A stretch of DNA of 64,000 nt from Candidatus Melainabacteria bacterium 17Bon1m. GTDB taxonomy: Bacteria > Cyanobacteriota > Vampirovibrionia > Obscuribacterales > Obscuribacteraceae. The notes under the pieces are model-generated. The model did no database searches and was not told the origin of the DNA. It saw nothing but the letters and a program-made list of their open reading frames with translations. Below are positions 46,362 through 57,348 of this stretch, piece by piece. Within the stretch, counting starts at the first letter, position 1. The number at the start of each line of letters is the position of its first letter. The position numbers and the translations under genes are program-made. Location of the stretch: assembly GCA_032128875.1 (NCBI GenBank), contig JAVLKG010000003.1, positions 952,974-1,016,973 of the forward strand. The letters are read 5' to 3'.

Positions 46362-46504
46362 GAATGGTTGCGCCGTCACCCTTTGGGGTGATTTGACGCG
46401 GGTTTATGGGGGATTCCCTGTGTATTCACTTGGGTAAATCCCAGTCACAAAAAGGATACTGTCGATGATGATCAAAATCCGTATCTCCGGAGGCTTTGTG
46501 GGCA

Positions 46505-47338
46505 ATGAATGTAGATCACCTCTATAAGCTGTATTACGACCGTCACGCGACAGTCAGAACCAGGTGTCCCGAAAACGTTCATTACTTCTGGAAGGCTCAT
46601 GAAAAAACATGGACCGGCCGCGAAGTGGAATCTATAACCAAGCGCGAAATCCAAGATTGGATGGATGATGTGGCTCAATCAAGCCGCTCGTCTGCAACAA
46701 GAGCCGTCAATCAACTCTCCGCAATATTTGGATGGGGGATAAAACGCGGCTATATAGAGTCGAACCCGTGTATTGGTGTCGAAAGGTACAAGATCAAATC
46801 TCGTGAAAGATTCTTGATGCCAGGCGAACTATCGAAATTTCGAGCTTCGCTAAATCAAGAGCCCGAATTGTTACGGGATTTCTTCTACATCTGCCTGTTA
46901 ACGGGTGCACGTCGTGGCAACGTTCAGGCTATGCGATGGGATGAAATAGATCTCGATCTAAATATATGGCGATTCGATTCGAAGAATGATGATTCACAGG
47001 TCTTACCAATCATGCCCGCGGTAAAAGCAATTTTGTTGCGACGAGCACTTGTAAGCACATCACCTTTTGTTTTTCCGGGCCGGTATGGTGGACATCTCAA
47101 AGAACCGAAACGAGCTTGGGCGCGGGTTCTGAAAAGGGCTGGGATTTCCAATCTGAGAATTCATGACCTTCGGCGGACGGTTGGGTCTTACATGGCAATT
47201 AAAGGCGAATCAGCCTATGTCATTGGCAAAGCATTGGGGCACAGGGATCAGCGGTCCACTGCCGTCTATGCAAAGCTCAACTTAGAGCCGGTCAAATCAG
47301 CATTTGGAACCATCGAATCTATTCTTCTGCCATCTTGA
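46505..47338 (+). CDS. Tyrosine integrase
   Basis: TGARRG, IHDLRRT, LGH and TAVYA catalytic residues; adjacent to att. Confidence 0.92.
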   Translation: MNVDHLYKLYYDRHATVRTRCPENVHYFWKAHEKTWTGREVESITKREIQDWMDDVAQSSRSSATRAVNQLSAIFGWGIKRGYIESNPCIGVERYKIKSRERFLMPGELSKFRASLNQEPELLRDFFYICLLTGARRGNVQAMRWDEIDLDLNIWRFDSKNDDSQVLPIMPAVKAILLRRALVSTSPFVFPGRYGGHLKEPKRAWARVLKRAGISNLRIHDLRRTVGSYMAIKGESAYVIGKALGHRDQRSTAVYAKLNLEPVKSAFGTIESILLPS

Positions 47339-48020: not shown

Positions 48021-48689
48021 ATGTCTAATGTAGTCCCGATCAATCAAAAGACTCTATCTATCGTTCCGCAACAGAACGCATTTACAACAGCTATGTCATT
48101 GGTTCCAATCAAGAAGAAGCGATTTGGCGGCAGACCGCCGAAAGGACCGAACAACCCGCACACCCGGAAGGCGCTCAGCAAAGAAGAGCTTGAGCGAGTA
48201 TTCGAGGCAGCGAAGACGGCGAGCAGATACGGGCATCGTGATTACTGCATGATGTTGATTGCATATCGTCACGCGCTGCGCTCCAGCGAGATCTCCAAAT
48301 TGCATTGGTCAATGATTGATCTCGACAAGAAAGAAATATACATTCCTCGATCAAAAGGCGGTCAATCGAATTATCATCCGCTATCGGATCTTGAAATCAA
48401 AGAATTGAATTGGCTGCCTGATCATCGTGGATATGTATTCAAGGCTCAAACTGGTGGCAACCTGCAAGCCAGAGCCATCTTCAAAATAGTTGCTCGAGCC
48501 GGCAGACTCGCTGGACTTAATTTCCCACTTCATCCACACATGTTCAGGCATTCAAAGCTGACTCATCTGGCGGAGCGGAAGACTGACGCGTTCATTCTTC
48601 AGAACTTCGCTGGTCACAAAGACATTAGATCGACTCAAGAATATGTGAAAGAGGCAAAATGGCAATTTGAGGGGCTGACTGAAGACTAA
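48021..48689 (+). CDS. FimB/FimE-like short tyrosine recombinase
   Basis: RDYCMMLIAYRHALRSSE, HPHMFRHS and GHKDIRSTQEY; catalytic domain only. Confidence 0.85.
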   Translation: MSNVVPINQKTLSIVPQQNAFTTAMSLVPIKKKRFGGRPPKGPNNPHTRKALSKEELERVFEAAKTASRYGHRDYCMMLIAYRHALRSSEISKLHWSMIDLDKKEIYIPRSKGGQSNYHPLSDLEIKELNWLPDHRGYVFKAQTGGNLQARAIFKIVARAGRLAGLNFPLHPHMFRHSKLTHLAERKTDAFILQNFAGHKDIRSTQEYVKEAKWQFEGLTED

Positions 48690-49045
48690 TGAGAAAGCTT
48701 GACTGTTCGGAAAGTACTGAGAATTTGCTAAAGGCAGCGGGTGAATGCCCGTATTGCCAAATGGACACGCTTTGGAAGCAGAAGTGGTCAACTCACTGGT
48801 TCTATTGCTGCATGTGTGATCAATGGTGGACAACTGAACCAGAGCCGTTGAAGATGAATCCAGGCTATATCAATCAGATTGATTTCATGCAAGCAATGCG
48901 AAACTATCAGCCGGAGCCTTCAATGTTGGTAGCAGCTATAGCCAATCAACCGAGTTACGCTCATCAGCAATTACACCCAACCAATCGATTAGCTCAATGG
49001 CGCTCACCGCTCGAATTGGTAGTGAATGAATCAATCACTGTTTAA
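48689..49045 (+). CDS. Phage protein with zinc-ribbon motif
   Basis: CPYC...CCMC; TAATG-coupled to the upstream gene. Confidence 0.6.
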   Translation: MRKLDCSESTENLLKAAGECPYCQMDTLWKQKWSTHWFYCCMCDQWWTTEPEPLKMNPGYINQIDFMQAMRNYQPEPSMLVAAIANQPSYAHQQLHPTNRLAQWRSPLELVVNESITV

Positions 49046-49136
49046 TTGATTGGACCGACCCAGCAAGCAACAATCTAAACATATAACCCCAGGCGCCCCT
49101 CATTGAAGCCACTGGGGTTTTAGTTTTGGAGATGTA

Positions 49137-49424
49137 ATGCTGAAAAGAATCAAGTGGAGTTACCACTATAAGATGGTCTGGCTGGGGACGCTACTGTTCA
49201 AGACCGGCAAAGCCCATTGCTCTTTCTGTAATTCCAAGCCCACCAATTTCATTCAATACGCCGGTCGGTTGAAATGGGAACACCTGTGTTTCGACTGCTA
49301 CATGATTACCCATGATGTGATCATGGAACTGGCCGACATGAACTTACCAGCCGATGCGATAAATTATCGATTTATCTCTAAACAAGCATGGAAAGAGTAC
49401 ATGAAGCGTCAGGCCGCCCTCTAA
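49137..49424 (+). CDS. Phage protein with two CxxC motifs
   Basis: CSFC...CFDC; GGAG SD. Confidence 0.6.
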   Translation: MLKRIKWSYHYKMVWLGTLLFKTGKAHCSFCNSKPTNFIQYAGRLKWEHLCFDCYMITHDVIMELADMNLPADAINYRFISKQAWKEYMKRQAAL

Positions 49425-49666
49425 ATCTTCTTGGCTCCGCAACGCAGGCAGAGCATTACCCGCCTGGCGATGTCATAGCGACTCATCCGCCCAGATATAT
49501 CGATCTGGCAATCACCACATTTAGTACCAGACAAAGCTTTCTTATCAATCAATCCGCAATGCCTGGATTTATTGAACTCAGTCGAATTCGGTCTGTTCTT
49601 CAATCTATTTAGAACAGTCAATTCACGTTTTTGATCATGACTAAGCCCAACTCTATGGCTCGACAT
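49421..49666 (-). CDS. Small basic CxxC phage protein
   Basis: CGDC...CLRC; AGGT SD on the minus strand. Confidence 0.5.
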   Translation of the reverse strand: MSSHRVGLSHDQKRELTVLNRLKNRPNSTEFNKSRHCGLIDKKALSGTKCGDCQIDISGRMSRYDIARRVMLCLRCGAKKI

Positions 49667-50030
49667 TCTTATTGATTACCTAAAAACGGACAAAAAAAAT
49701 AGCGCTCTTTCGGTATGTTTAGCTTATCTGTTGCTGCGTGAAGCCCTAGAACACACACACATAACCCTCACAGACTCAGTAGGCTGCTAATGGCTATGGC
49801 GGATGACTCGTATCCGCGCATCTCTCCCAGGCTGAAATGTAAAAGGTGTAATTGCTTTCTTTTTTACCATCGATCAATTTCCCAATCAATTCCCTCAATC
49901 AGATATTGATCTGGTATCAAATCCAACACCATATCGAAAACATATCCTCATCATTTAATCAAACCAAATTGATTAGAGTCGAATTCAATCCAATACACTA
50001 ATCGAATCAGTGGTATCGGATGTGGTGGCA

Positions 50031-50321
50031 ATGTTATTTGGCGAAGACAAATTCAATCGATGTGATCTGTATGTCTCAATCTCATTAGAGCCTAAACAGA
50101 TCATGTTAGCTTCGAACTCAGGGATTCGATATAAAACATTGAAATCTGAGAAATTGAATCTAACTGAATTGGATCAAGCCGTTGAACAGATGAGATCTGA
50201 AATCCCGAACTCTGACCAGGAAGAATCTTATTGGGAACTCTATCTGACTCCAAATCATGTTGAACAATACAATCAGATCCGAAACAACCGAAACAAGACG
50301 TTTTGTCTATTGGTGGCATAG
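50031..50321 (+). CDS. Phage hypothetical protein
   Basis: ATG at 50031 after GGTGG. Confidence 0.5.
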   Translation: MLFGEDKFNRCDLYVSISLEPKQIMLASNSGIRYKTLKSEKLNLTELDQAVEQMRSEIPNSDQEESYWELYLTPNHVEQYNQIRNNRNKTFCLLVA

Positions 50322-50388
50322 ATGTCTGAACCTCTCCTCTTTTATCCTCTCGCTACGCTCACCTTCATCACCTTTGCAGGATACATAT

Positions 50389-50646
50389 ATGTTTCCCTCT
50401 TATCCTTCATATCGTCAGAACCCGTCGACTTCAACGCCGACAGAGAACTATAAATACTCACAGGAAGTCAGAACCAATGCACAGAGAAAACTCGACAGCC
50501 TCTTTATTGACCTCAGCAACAAAACGCCCAAAGACAAAAAAGCGTATTACCTTTACCAAGTTCTTCACGAAGCTGTTAACGCGAAAGCGGAACCAGGATC
50601 AAGAGACAAAGGTGAAACAGTCGACGACGACTATCTCTGTGGATAA
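50389..50646 (+). CDS. Phage hypothetical protein
   Basis: ATG at 50389 with AGGA SD. Confidence 0.5.
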   Translation: MFPSYPSYRQNPSTSTPTENYKYSQEVRTNAQRKLDSLFIDLSNKTPKDKKAYYLYQVLHEAVNAKAEPGSRDKGETVDDDYLCG

Positions 50647-50812
50647 ACTCCCAGATCTGAATGTCCAATTCCCTGAACAGCCATTGACTGAAGAACAGCA
50701 ACAACAGGAAGACGACAAACTCCCAGAACCAATTCCACCAGTAATCCCAGCTCACATCAGAGCTCAATCATTCCCAGTCAAGAAAATCACTGAAAACAAA
50801 TGGGAAGTCTAA
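50612..50812 (+). CDS. Phage hypothetical Pro/Gln-rich protein
   Basis: 3' part of ORF 50477..50812; start uncertain. Confidence 0.45.
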   Translation: MKQSTTTISVDKLPDLNVQFPEQPLTEEQQQQEDDKLPEPIPPVIPAHIRAQSFPVKKITENKWEV

Positions 50813-50900
50813 ATCTCTTCTTCATTCATAGAATTCTCTGGTATTGCATTCAATACCATCTGTATATCTTCTCAATCATTCAAGGACTCAGAATCTACTG

Positions 50901-51116
50901 ATGGAAACAACTGCAGTTCTCGCAATTGCCTTCTTGATCTATGCAATCGCTCAAACAGTCGAATCAGCAATTCTCAAAGAGAAACTTGATGATCTAACAG
51001 ATATATCCAATCAGTTGATCAATGATGTTCAAACTATTTGGGATTCAACCATGAATCTAAACGTCATTGAATGCGACTTCCAACCAAATACATTCTCTGA
51101 AGGTAATGACCTCTAA
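50901..51116 (+). CDS. Small membrane-anchored coiled-coil protein
   Basis: METTAVLAIAFLIYAIA followed by heptads. Confidence 0.55.
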   Translation: METTAVLAIAFLIYAIAQTVESAILKEKLDDLTDISNQLINDVQTIWDSTMNLNVIECDFQPNTFSEGNDL

Positions 51117-51544
51117 TGGACTTCATATTCATCCCTCTGATTCTATTCCTGATAGCGACAGCGCTGCATAATCCCTATCAGCGAGTGAACGAGCTCGACA
51201 AACAAATCACCGATCTAACCAAGCTGATTCACGCAATCGAAGCAGATCATTACATCCATGAATTCAATTGGAAACCAATCGGAAACAAAGTCAGAACAGC
51301 AGAGAAAACAATCTCAGTCCATGAACAACAGATTGGTTATGTAATGGATCAACTCAACATGATCAAATCTGACCTTCAATTATTTGTTGGACGATCAAAC
51401 GCCAATCGACAAGCTGAACTACTCAACGAGATCTTTACTCGACTCAATACCGCTGAACAGCAAATAGATGCTTTGAGAGAAGAAGACCTAAAGACGCTGC
51501 AAGACGCAGAGCTCCTAACGACCATTAGAAACACTCTTTCCTGA
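51116..51544 (+). CDS. Membrane-anchored coiled-coil protein
   Basis: MDFIFIPLILFLIA followed by heptads; TAATG-coupled. Confidence 0.6.
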   Translation: MDFIFIPLILFLIATALHNPYQRVNELDKQITDLTKLIHAIEADHYIHEFNWKPIGNKVRTAEKTISVHEQQIGYVMDQLNMIKSDLQLFVGRSNANRQAELLNEIFTRLNTAEQQIDALREEDLKTLQDAELLTTIRNTLS

Positions 51545-51559
51545 AGGTAACTCAAACCA

Positions 51560-51742
51560 ATAGAACTAATCATTCCTGCGATAGCAGCATTCGATGTTCT
51601 ATTGACCTCATTCATCATTTATCGATTCATCCTATCAATCAAAGCTGATCAGAAATTGAATCGAATAGAAGCGAAGCTGGATAGGTTAGAACAGTCATTA
51701 GATCAGTTAGAGAGATCATCTGATTGGAATCACATCGTTTAA
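51560..51742 (+). CDS. Membrane-anchored coiled-coil protein with apparent ATA start
   Basis: IELIIPAIAAFDVLLTSFIIYRFILSIKADQKLNRIEAKLDRLEQSLDQLE..; not in the ORF track. Confidence 0.45.
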   Translation: MELIIPAIAAFDVLLTSFIIYRFILSIKADQKLNRIEAKLDRLEQSLDQLERSSDWNHIV

Positions 51743-52214
51743 CTGATTCATTGAACCGCAAGGATTGAATTGATTAAGGCTGGTTCCGAAGTGGTCGGTC
51801 GATATGATACGGAGCGGGCAATTAGACAAGGCCAGTTAATCAACAAAATTGTTAGTTGTGGGTACCAAGTATTGAAGGACTCGGTACTAATCAGGCTGGC
51901 TTATTAATCAGGGCTGCCGGTTGCCTCGGTCGGAAGGTACCGGGTATACCCACCCAGGGGGGAAAGCGTCCGCCCCCTTTAGGGTGCCTTCAAGCGTGCG
52001 CATAACTTTGATTGGGGGTCTGAATTCATCAATGATTCGACCAGATTTCCTGATTTCAAAATCGACTCAAATTTTGCAATAAATTCTGATTGGGGGTATT
52101 GATCATACCCACTGATAGATATATCCCTAATTTAATCGATTGAAAATCAGATTGCTGCAGTTCGGGCTGGTACTGTATCTGGTGTCAAATATTTAGTACC
52201 GGTGGTGGTGGCAA

Positions 52215-54360: not shown

Positions 54361-54584
54361 CATGGACTTTCCCGAAGAATCTGAACCAGAACGCCATTGT
54401 TCCGGTCCTGAACCGATCATTCATGAATCCCAGAACGATTTCTGGTGGCCGGGTTCTGCCGGCAATTGCCTTGATACAGATGATCATTTTGATGAAAATC
54501 CTGACTAAAAAGCCCCGGGTGAGTTACTTCCGGAGCCCTTTAGACAGGAGGATTTATGTCTTCGATTTCTTGATTGCAGAAAAA

Positions 54585-54627
54585 TGATACCACGGATAGT
54601 ATCACTTTTCCAATTCTATGCTATGAT
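54585..54627 (+). promoter_or_regulatory. Operator palindrome plus extended -10 promoter for the ncRNA/tRNA operon
   Basis: TGATAC-N8-GTATCA (54585-54604) and TGcTATGAT (54619-54627). Confidence 0.6.
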
Positions 54628-54639
54628 TAATTACATGAT

Positions 54640-54972
54640 CAATCAACTTCCCGGAGGCAGACCGGGCTTTTCAGTGATTTCCTCCAAGCCCAGCCACTGG
54701 GGGATTAATAGGTCGATTGAGTGTGAAGGATGCGCCCCGACGGGTGGGATAACTGGGAATGCCCTAGCTTCCGGATTAGGTAATTGATTGGACCCTTTGT
54801 CTGACGGGACAATAAATCAATCACATGCCAGGCTGGTTTTAATCGATCAGCGTGGCTTCATGGGAAATCGGAAGGCTTACAATCCTTCCCCCTCTTGCGA
54901 GACAGGCTTAAACGTCCGCTGAATACAGCGGGGCTAGTTATTAGAGGGTCTGCTGAAACCAGTGATTTCCCT
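54640..54972 (+). ncRNA. Candidate large structured non-coding RNA (class unknown)
   Basis: Closing helix GCAGACC/GGTCTGC, nested long-range helices and several hairpins; lies between the promoter and the first tRNA. Confidence 0.6.
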
Positions 54973-54976
54973 ATTT

Positions 54977-55050
54977 GGGCTCGTAGTGTAATGGTTAGCA
55001 CGGCACCGCTCGAGGTGTAAGAGCATGTTCGAATCATGCAGGGTCCACCA
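54977..55050 (+). tRNA. Atypical tRNA-like gene with 6-nt anticodon loop (identity undetermined)
   Basis: D-arm GTGT/GCAC, T-arm GCATG-TTCGAAT-CATGC and 3' ACCA; anticodon arm GCACC-GCTCGA-GGTGT. Confidence 0.7.
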
Positions 55051-55070
55051 ATTTTATTGAGAGAGAAATC

Positions 55071-55280
55071 ATGCCAGAAATTAAAGATCCTTTCGAATAT
55101 CACAAACCATCAGAGAAGCAATTGTGTGTCTTGTCTCAGCTTCGCGCGAAGTGCAAGGAATTGAACGATCTCCAAATGCAATTGCTCCCGCCTGGTCGCT
55201 GCCGATCACTGGCTGTAACTAAGCTGGAAGAAGTTTCGATGTGGCAGAATAAAGCTGCCGTGTTTGAATTGGCGGAATAA
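55071..55280 (+). CDS. Acb2/Tad1-like helical-hairpin protein (putative immune-signal sponge)
   Basis: F.YH.P...Q....LR....EL......P.GR..SLA.TKLEE..MW.N.A pattern, recalled for this family. Confidence 0.7.
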   Translation: MPEIKDPFEYHKPSEKQLCVLSQLRAKCKELNDLQMQLLPPGRCRSLAVTKLEEVSMWQNKAAVFELAE

Positions 55281-55291
55281 CCGCCCTTCTT

Positions 55292-55367
55292 GGTCCTGTC
55301 GTCTAGTGGCCCAGGATTCCGCGTTGTCGCCGCGGAGACGCGGATTCGAATTCCGCCAGGACCGCCA
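55292..55367 (+). tRNA. tRNA-Asp(GTC)
   Basis: GGTCCTG/CAGGACC acceptor; CCGCG-TTGTCGC-CGCGG; GCCA end. Confidence 0.9.
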
Positions 55368-55371
55368 CTTT

Positions 55372-55447
55372 GCCCGATTAGTTTAGTTGGAAAAATGCCA
55401 GCCTTCCAAGTTGGTGTCGCCGGTTCGAATCCAGGCATTGGGCTCCA
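55372..55447 (+). tRNA. tRNA-Gly(TCC)
   Basis: CCAGC-CTTCCAA-GTTGG; TCCA end; bulged T-stem. Confidence 0.85.
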
Positions 55448-55452
55448 ATTTT

Positions 55453-55525
55453 GCCGAAATAGCTGAGACGGTTCAAGCGCCGGTCTGCAAAACCGGAGAC
55501 ATCAGTTCGAGTCTGATTTTTGGCT
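55453..55525 (+). tRNA. tRNA-Cys(GCA)
   Basis: CCGGT-CTGCAAA-ACCGG; U discriminator; CCA not encoded. Confidence 0.85.
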
Positions 55526-55529
55526 TTAT

Positions 55530-55614
55530 GCAACAGTATCCAAGCTGGCTCAAGGACGCGGCCTGTAAAGTCGTTGGTTAACCCCGGTCATTGGTTCGAA
55601 TCCAATCTGTTGCA
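55530..55614 (+). tRNA. tRNA-Tyr(GTA)
   Basis: GCAACAG/CTGTTGC acceptor; GCGGC-CTGTAAA-GTCGT; long variable arm. Confidence 0.88.
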
Positions 55615-55618
55615 ATTT

Positions 55619-55690
55619 TGCCTTGTCGTCTAACTGGTAGGACAGCGGACTTTGAATCCGTTAATGGACGTTCGAACCGTCCCGAGGCAG
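55619..55690 (+). tRNA. tRNA-Gln(TTG)
   Basis: U1-A72; GCGGA-CTTTGAA-TCCGT; G discriminator. Confidence 0.88.
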
Positions 55691-55711
55691 CTTACTAAAT
55701 CATAGAAATTT

Positions 55712-55741
55712 GAAAGCCGCCCTGGTGGGAGCGGCTTTCTT
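55712..55741 (+). terminator. Terminator of the tRNA operon
   Basis: GAAAGCCGC...GCGGCTTTCTT. Confidence 0.75.
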
Positions 55742-55868
55742 GGCGAACGGGGGAGTCGTTCTCTTTTATCTTGTCAGACCACCAAACCCAATCAATTAAT
55801 CAATCCAATTTCCTGATCGAAATAAATCGAATGCCACCATAAGCGGTATCACTTATTGGGGAAATTGA

Positions 55869-57179: not shown

Positions 57180-57269
57180 TGGCGGATTGTGAACGATTCG
57201 AACGTTCGGCACCCTCTCGGGAGCGCCCGGTTAGCAACCGAGTGCATTAGACCTCTCTGCCAACAATCC
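57180..57269 (-). tRNA. tRNA-Ser(GCT)
   Basis: GGATTGT/ACAATCC acceptor; CTCGG-TTGCTAA-CCGGG; long variable arm; GCCA end. Confidence 0.9.
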
Positions 57270-57270
57270 A

Positions 57271-57348
57271 TGGTTGCGAGAGGTTCGATTCGAACGAACG
57301 ATCTTTGGGATATGAGCCCAACGAGATAGACCACTTCTCTACTCCGCA
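57271..57348 (-). tRNA. Initiator-type tRNA-Met(CAT)
   Basis: TTGGG-CTCATAT-CCCAA (three G-C pairs); ACCA end; 1-nt acceptor bulge. Confidence 0.82.

Follow-up and report, generated by a model that had tools for sequence, protein, structure and literature searches.

A compact structured RNA at the head of a prophage tRNA operon in a Candidatus Melainabacteria genome

What is the sequence that stands at the head of the transfer RNA (tRNA) operon in a prophage-like island of Candidatus Melainabacteria bacterium 17Bon1m, and does it encode a structured RNA? The locus lies in a stretch of 64,000 nucleotides (nt), hereafter the window, which is part of contig JAVLKG010000003.1 of a 7.55-Mb bacterial genome in 35 contigs that is 93% complete. 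The island occupies the window from about 46.5 kb onward and is marked by integrases and matches to phage protein families. A preliminary description, made from the DNA letters, had proposed that positions 54640-54972 form a large structured noncoding RNA at the head of the operon. A structured RNA on the + strand is indeed found at this place, where a fold with compensatory changes is conserved in a diverged homologue. The fold first proposed was wrong in detail, and the general idea behind it holds. The conserved fold consists of two separable domains, of which only the 151-nt 3' domain (54825-54975), here called the cassette, is thermodynamically outstanding. The 190-nt 5' domain is an optional leader ahead of the cassette in the window phage and its homologue.

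Conservation and fold of the cassette

The homologue, designated L003, was one of 13 viral loci recovered by using an Acb2-like protein encoded in the operon as bait; this IMG/VR contig is 44,993 bp long and carries direct terminal repeats. It aligns to positions 54513-54975 of the window (nhmmer E 4e-26). The L003 phage is syntenic with the window, and identity is 85% for its Acb2-like protein, 76% for its RNA ligase and 51-80% for the remaining neighbours. Homology starts directly after the stop codon of the upstream open reading frames (ORFs), which are themselves unrelated. The order of elements common to the two phages is an 18-nt block, an inverted repeat, a -10-like motif, the RNA, a tRNA, the Acb2-like ORF and a tRNA array. 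The window's own genome and the L003 phage record each contain one copy of the RNA.

For the 333-nt stretch as a whole the folding energy is -124.3 kcal/mol, with a z-score (z) of -2.99, and one of 100 dinucleotide shuffles folded as well; z for its minus strand is -2.25. RNAalifold, applied to a MAFFT alignment of the window and L003, returned a local structure of 67 pairs, 21 of which had changed on both sides, while slid partners gave at most 3 such changes. Against a column-shuffle null, the whole RNA reached z -5.44, its 21 double changes standing against 11.3 expected and being reached by none of 60 shuffles. The same null gave 8 double changes versus 3.0 expected for the 3' part (z -4.61, 0/200 shuffles) and 14 versus 7.5 for the 5' part (z -3.77, 3/200 shuffles). 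Comparison of the single sequences with shuffled controls, which the preliminary description had proposed as a check, came out for one domain and not for the other. None of 200 shuffles folded as well as the cassette in either phage (z -5.27 in the window, z -3.70 in L003), whereas the fold of the 5' domain was unremarkable (z -0.81 in the window, with 38 of 200 shuffles as good, and z -1.03 in L003).

The architecture of the cassette, a hairpin (P0) followed by a four-way junction (P1-P6; Table 1), was obtained independently from single-sequence minimum free energy folds of the window and of L003. For the comparison of the two, the structure was drawn by hand and checked, a covariance model (R1) was built from the window alone, and L003 was aligned to R1 with Infernal, the match covering L003:2696-2851 at 95.4 bits. 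This structure-guided alignment contains 42 pairs, of which 11 carry changes on both sides and 1 a change on one side, and a single cell is broken; 98.8% of the cells are paired, and L003 keeps 41 of the 42 pairs. Pair values as high were reached by none of 500 shuffles, and slid partners yielded at most 1 double change. Of 82 paired sites, 24 had changed, and the compensations lie in the inner part of P0 and in P2, P3, P4 and P6. The invariance of P1, P5 and the UAAACGU bulge suggests that these elements are read by sequence, and a similar motif, UUUAA(U/A)CG, is carried by the P0 loop (in part our own reading). The minus strand of the cassette folds more weakly (z -4.10 in the window, -2.60 in L003), and in L003 it folds differently, without the junction; the + strand model contains G-U pairs. 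The fold of the cassette is conserved and specific to the + strand.

The helices originally proposed are all present at the coordinates given for them and can be formed in the window. The outer helix GCAGACC/GGTCTGC pairs at 7/7 positions, three nested long-range helices at 6/6, 8/8 and 6/6, and each of three hairpins at 6/6. In the MAFFT alignment, L003 keeps 4/7 pairs of the outer helix and 4/6, 5/8 and 4/6 pairs of the nested ones. A single large fold closed by GCAGACC/GGTCTGC is therefore not conserved; the L003 comparison instead gives the two separable domains, and the 5' domain is swapped out in a close relative of the window phage, X5/X6 (see below). Collecting homologues and examining covariation, another check that had been suggested, yielded one diverged homologue with compensated pairs in the cassette and no support for the long-range helices. 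Among the hairpins, CCGCTG/CAGCGG is kept (6/6, invariant), as is GGAAGG/CCTTCC, with one compensated pair in the structure-guided alignment; GGGCTT/AAGCCC retains 2/6 pairs. An 11-mer, CAGTGATTTCC, does occur twice, at 54672 and 54960, with a possible partner, GGGAAATC, at 54862, and had been taken to indicate a pseudoknot or switch. Pairing with the 3' copy (GGGAAAT/ATTTCCC) is invariant at 7/7 positions and corresponds to P1. In L003 the 5' copy has no equivalent, and the switch or pseudoknot is accordingly not conserved.

Further evidence on the borders of the cassette came from X5 and X6, contigs from two other studies that contain part of the region and were aligned to the window (depth 2.8-4.8). 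The flanks of this relative are about 99% identical to the window. Positions 54581-54824, comprising the promoter region and the 5' domain, are replaced by 169 other letters, which again begin with TTTAATGATACCA and end in ...GGGTTCGAATCCCATCCAGCGCAATAT, read as the T-arm and acceptor end of a tRNA. Positions 54825-54975 are kept with 2 differences, of which the one listed (T>C at 54939) lies in an internal loop that is not conserved. These positions are followed by 79 other letters starting GGGTGAGGTAGCC..., read as tRNA-like, and then the first 19 nt of the unusual tRNA that lies next to the cassette in the window, the only part of that tRNA that is the same. The recombination joints thus coincide exactly with the cassette borders and leave the cassette between tRNA-like sequences, from which we conclude that it behaves as an autonomous unit of the tRNA array. 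The element 3' of the cassette differs in the three contexts, being the unusual tRNA in the window, tRNA-Trp in L003 and another sequence in X5/X6. In L003, tRNA-Trp follows the RNA after 58 extra nt (L003 2852-2909); these have no window counterpart and, by our reading, can form a hairpin of their own (GCCGGCC...GGCTGGC).

The operon and its surroundings

The preliminary description had noted an extended -10 element just upstream of the RNA. The motif is present (TGcTATGAT, 54619-54627), and TGaTAGATT stands at the corresponding place of L003. For want of a -35 match, the window motif did not enter the list from a consensus promoter scan; if active, it would place the transcription start near 54634. 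The inverted repeat TGATAC-N8-GTATCA, located around the -35 position, may be an operator or other regulator binding site. Its left half, AATGATACCA, is found in L003 and also in the replacement sequence of the X5 relative. The core of the 18-nt block farther upstream, TGAGTTACTT, is in L003 the loop of a clean 8-bp hairpin, and the corresponding stem is weak in the window (the stems are our own reading).

Table 1. Coordinates of the structured RNA, its helices and the neighbouring features in the window
Feature	Positions	Strand	Remarks
Two tyrosine integrases	46496-47338, 48021-48689		Many small + strand ORFs matching PHROG families come next
18-nt block CC.GGGTGAGTTACTTCC	54514-54531	+	Immediately after upstream ORF stop; nhmmer alignment; start of L003 homology
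Inverted repeat TGATAC-N8-GTATCA	54585-54604		Around -35 position; common to L003
Extended -10-like motif TGcTATGAT	54619-54627	+	Aligned counterpart in L003
5' domain	54634-54824	+	About 190 nt, ahead of cassette in window and L003
H1	54640-54649 / 54710-54719	+	Two-sided changes
H2	54651-54654 / 54662-54665	+	Two-sided changes
H5	54746-54750 / 54759-54764	+	Two-sided changes
H6 AATTGATT / AATCAAT	54782 / 54815	+	Our own reading
H7	54797-54802 / 54807-54812	+	Two-sided changes
3' cassette	54825-54975	+	151 nt; core structured RNA; hairpin P0 and four-way junction P1-P6
P0 hairpin	54827-54837 / 54846-54856	+	Followed by linker UUCAU
P1	54862-54868 / 54965-54971	+	7-bp closing stem GGGAAAU/AUUUCCC, 7/7, invariant
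P2	54870-54875 / 54884-54889	+	
P3	54890-54895 / 54943-54948	+	
P4	54905-54908 / 54932-54935	+	
Bulge UAAACGU	54909-54915	+	Invariant
P5	54916-54921 / 54926-54931	+	Invariant
P6	54950-54952 / 54960-54962	+	
Unusual first tRNA	54977-55050	+	ARAGORN 'tRNA-???'; Rfam tRNA model 40.3 bits; CCA encoded
69-residue ORF, Acb2/Tad1 hairpin domain	55071-55280	+	PF24729 E 1e-14; phrog_1454; within tRNA operon
tRNA array Asp, Gly, Cys, Tyr, Gln	55292-55691	+	ARAGORN/Rfam
Terminator-like hairpin and T run	55727-55763	+	Consensus scan only; likely operon end
RNA ligase, 238 residues	56375-57091		PF09414, phrog_548; just 3' of tRNA operon

Six tRNAs lie directly 3' of the structured RNA in the window. In the first of them the anticodon loop (GCTCGA) has 6 nt and the acceptor stem has a G-A mismatch at its base; this gene may be a pseudo-tRNA or may decode in an unusual way. 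The 69-residue ORF that follows carries a domain that assigns it to a family of anti-CBASS/anti-Thoeris sponges. Relatives of this Acb2-like protein at eight loci (L003, L005-L007, L011, L012, L020 and L025) often have tRNA genes within about 1 kb upstream, and in L020 two tRNA-Arg genes of a 12-tRNA array flank the gene; such an association of a small Acb2-like ORF and a tRNA array seems to be recurrent. In the X5/X6 relative, 167 nt at 55446-55612 are missing (joint 55445>55613), and with them tRNA-Cys and tRNA-Tyr, which indicates that the tRNA array is mosaic between near-identical prophages. Beyond the RNA ligase gene, tRNA-Ser and tRNA-Met are encoded on the opposite strand (57180-57348), and the combination of RNA ligase and tRNAs looks like a neighbourhood of the tRNA repair and replacement type. 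At the left end of the island, the two integrase genes are 700 nt apart and are followed by a region (49000-52000) with a G+C content of 41-43%, versus about 50% elsewhere.

Identity, distribution and competing explanations

The novelty claimed for the RNA was examined with Rfam 15, none of whose 4227 families matches it at the gathering score or at E ≤ 10. As far as Rfam has models for them, this covers GOLLD, ROOL, HEARO, tmRNA, RNase P RNA, Y RNA and the self-cleaving ribozymes. At the gathering score, the whole window gave tRNAs only. At E ≤ 10, the region 54450-55100 gave the neighbouring tRNA and a 13.9-bit minus-strand xrRNA match attributed to chance, and L003 2380-3000 gave its own tRNA and scattered matches of no more than 16 bits. 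A tRNA or transfer-messenger RNA was rejected as the identity of the cassette, with no call in 54825-54975 by ARAGORN or by the Rfam tRNA model at E ≤ 10. Bacterial Y RNAs of the YrlA type (compare the abstract of PMC4201824) lie beside the gene of an Rsr/Ro60 protein, which contains a TROVE domain, or work together with that protein. This identity was also rejected: TROVE (PF05731) was not found in the window's own genome at its 93% completeness, control genomes being positive, and no Rfam match was obtained. A transcription-attenuating riboswitch or leader with control over one fixed downstream gene was rejected as well: the terminator-like sites at 54650-54666 and 54915-54932 have no T runs in L003, the alternative pairing of the 11-mer is not conserved, and the downstream gene differs in all three contexts. 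The earlier statement that the stretch contains no credible ORF is borne out: no ORF in 54509-54976 is conserved in the homologue, where the + strand frames are broken and the longest open stretch is 46 codons.

Searches for further copies of the RNA found none apart from L003 and the X5/X6 relative. In blastn comparisons with 50,697 phage records, neither the window RNA nor the L003 RNA found a match. Four exact or gapped DNA patterns hit one stretch each in viral contigs, always in L003, and the single pattern match in a genome contig (L018) lies inside a protein-coding frame with no tRNA nearby, by our reading, and is due to chance. When 30 loci were searched by nhmmer, including 13 viral and 15 metagenome loci reached through the Acb2-like protein and not through the RNA itself, only L003 was returned. 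R1, run over 31 sources, likewise found L003 only; four other matches (E 0.69-6.6) fell within the window itself and are due to chance. One locus (L019) encodes an Acb2-like protein that is 77% identical, in a different context and without the RNA. Used as bait, the RNA ligase returned nothing or only the L003 contig, and a 94-residue upstream ORF returned no locus. Blastn of 61 relatives and of 104 family genomes gave 2 genomes each, the window's own and one other (G017, locus L002), whose 35-nt match at 86% was not confirmed by a second covariance model, R2, and is regarded as chance. R2 itself found the RNA in 1 of the 104 family genomes and in 1 of 151 genomes of a phylum sample, in each case the window's own. 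Keyword searches of the open-access literature, which did not extend to supplements, found no description of the cassette RNA. The RNA is known from only two or three related phages, and its distribution is very narrow.

How might such an RNA be made and used? The reading that we favour, with confidence little above even, treats the cassette as an autonomous RNA gene within the phage tRNA array, co-transcribed with the tRNAs, freed by tRNA-processing enzymes and active in trans as a stable RNA. The extended -10 promoter candidate would drive its transcription together with the tRNAs and the Acb2-like gene. Cleavage by RNase P at 54976/54977, the 5' end of the next tRNA, would then generate the 3' end of the cassette, and in the X5/X6 context 3' processing of the preceding tRNA would generate its 5' end. 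The released RNA would persist and probably bind a protein, most likely through P1, P5, the UAAACGU bulge and the P0-loop motif; this is the weakest step of the proposal.

Several considerations weigh against this reading. Transcription, processing, a discrete stable RNA species and a partner protein are all proposals, and in the window and L003 no tRNA precedes the cassette, which leaves its 5' end undefined there. The flanking tRNAs of X5/X6 were read from the 30-letter ends of the foreign segments, at the low depth of those contigs. Only two diverged sequences are at hand, so the covariation amounts to one pairwise comparison; the structure-guided alignment of L003 is biased in favour of the structure to which it was fitted, one that had been drawn from the window; and P1 and P5 never vary and are hence silent for or against pairing. 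Absence of the RNA from everything else searched makes a wide functional importance unlikely. In two RNA-library runs (X2 and X4), the stretch lies inside contigs of 27.8 kb and 44.2 kb at a flat depth of about 22, which is no evidence of transcription. These contigs are long and may derive from libraries containing DNA, and they say nothing on transcription, ends or levels.

The main rival explanation, possible if rather unlikely, is that the fold is a cis-acting leader with no life of its own, which would protect the 5' end of the tRNA/acb2 transcript or set the processing of the next tRNA by RNase P or RNase E. A role of this kind suits an RNA that heads the operon in the window and L003, has a conserved promoter-like motif just upstream, and lies, as the cassette does in all three contexts, no more than 60 nt upstream of a tRNA or tRNA-like sequence. 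It accords poorly with X5/X6, where the cassette is internal, behind a tRNA-like 3' end, and with the finding that the next tRNA is different each time. A multi-helix junction with invariant unpaired motifs also exceeds the need of 5'-end protection, and no terminator or antiterminator is conserved. The cassette is very unlikely to be a relic, that is, a decayed or rearranged tRNA gene that still folds and is no longer functional. In 54862-54971 no tRNA is recognized by ARAGORN or, even at E ≤ 10, by the Rfam tRNA model, and the 11 compensated pairs and long invariant unpaired motifs, in phages whose neighbour proteins are 51-85% identical, point to purifying selection on the fold. What speaks for a relic is the cloverleaf-like topology (a 7-bp closing stem, three arms and a 7-nt loop on the last arm), the occupation of a tRNA gene position in which the cassette is exchanged like a tRNA gene, and the very narrow distribution.

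Two further explanations were considered. The palindromes CCGCTG-AATA-CAGCGG and TGATAC-N8-GTATCA, the recombination joints exactly at the cassette borders and the better-than-shuffled fold of the window's minus strand could reflect an element acting at the level of DNA, such as a replication origin, a recombination hotspot or an array of protein-binding sites, with inverted repeats that merely resemble helices. We consider this highly improbable: the + strand fold is the stronger one and uses G-U pairs, the L003 minus strand lacks the junction, and sites in duplex DNA would not be expected to have compensated stems over long distances, such as P3 (47 nt apart) and P1 (96 nt apart). A 20-residue micropeptide, MGNRKAYNPSPSCETGLNVR, could alternatively be encoded from an AUG at 54860 to a UGA at 54922, since L003 has a frame of equal length, MGNRELTHSPSSRALPLNVR, and start, stop and length coincide in both phages. 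Hardly any probability attaches to this reading. The 9 of 20 residues that agree are all encoded by invariant nucleotides, with no synonymous changes; offsetting 1-nt and 2-nt indels in the structure-guided alignment make the codons in mid-frame non-homologous; no Shine-Dalgarno-like sequence was seen by our reading; and the AUG runs into stem P1.

Relation to known systems

The current view of phage tRNA arrays is that they counter immunity based on tRNA cleavage, and we know of no function for the non-tRNA RNAs that such arrays contain (GOLLD, ROOL and the stable RNAs of T4). A speculative extension of the autonomous-gene reading, which we regard as unlikely, would make the cassette a mobile class of RNA gene in phage tRNA arrays and an RNA counter-defence that, shaped like a tRNA, serves as decoy or sponge against a host nuclease directed at tRNAs or against another RNA-binding immune protein. 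If true, the decoy would share its operon with replacement tRNAs and an Acb2-like nucleotide sponge, with the RNA ligase 1.4 kb further on. Irrespective of this, the 151-nt cassette offers a possible tractable model for tRNA-array RNAs, with a clean four-way junction, sharp borders and a neighbourhood of anti-defence genes, and its size suits probing, pull-downs and structure determination. Its value is limited by the existence of only two diverged copies.

In its proposed biogenesis, the cassette comes closest to species 1 and 2 (rnaC/rnaD) of the T4 tRNA cluster. The genes of these small stable RNAs lie between tRNA genes of the same strand, the RNAs mature from a shared precursor, and their expression and processing have been demonstrated. 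The position and strand of the cassette fit this pattern, and a common transcription unit is predicted from motifs; the likeness concerns arrangement. The cassette also resembles a tRNA itself in its four-way junction, its 7-bp closing stem, the 7-nt loop of its last arm and its array position, which is exchanged like that of a tRNA gene. It differs in that P3, P4 and P5 together make up a 54-nt arm where a tRNA has its anticodon arm, the D- and T-loop consensus is lacking by our reading, and CCA is not encoded.

RNase P also processes phage RNAs other than tRNAs, examples given in passages of PMC11143913 being the M3 RNA of phi80 and the C4 antisense RNA of P1/P7. The cassette is similar in ending directly at the 5' end of a tRNA and in being closed by a 7-bp stem. 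It differs in that no Rfam model matches it, including whatever C4 model Rfam holds, and its cleavage by RNase P is a prediction.

The preliminary description had pointed to GOLLD and ROOL as large phage RNAs that often sit near tRNA islands, and passages of PMC12286853 state the same. According to that source, these RNAs are encoded by phages and prophages, often near tRNA genes, as the cassette RNA is, and GOLLD has a conserved 3' and a variable 5' portion, a layout matched here by the better conserved 3' part and the dispensable 5' domain. The RNA described here does not match the GOLLD and ROOL models of Rfam. Its length is about 340 nt, 151 of them in the core, against more than 800 nt for many GOLLD RNAs (PMC12286853, same passages), and the large size and ornate multi-pseudoknot fold that characterize GOLLD and ROOL are not seen in it; nor do its features bear on oligomeric cages. 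The RNA is a real but rare structured family absent from Rfam, and it takes its place beside these larger molecules as a small variant of the RNAs carried in phage tRNA arrays.

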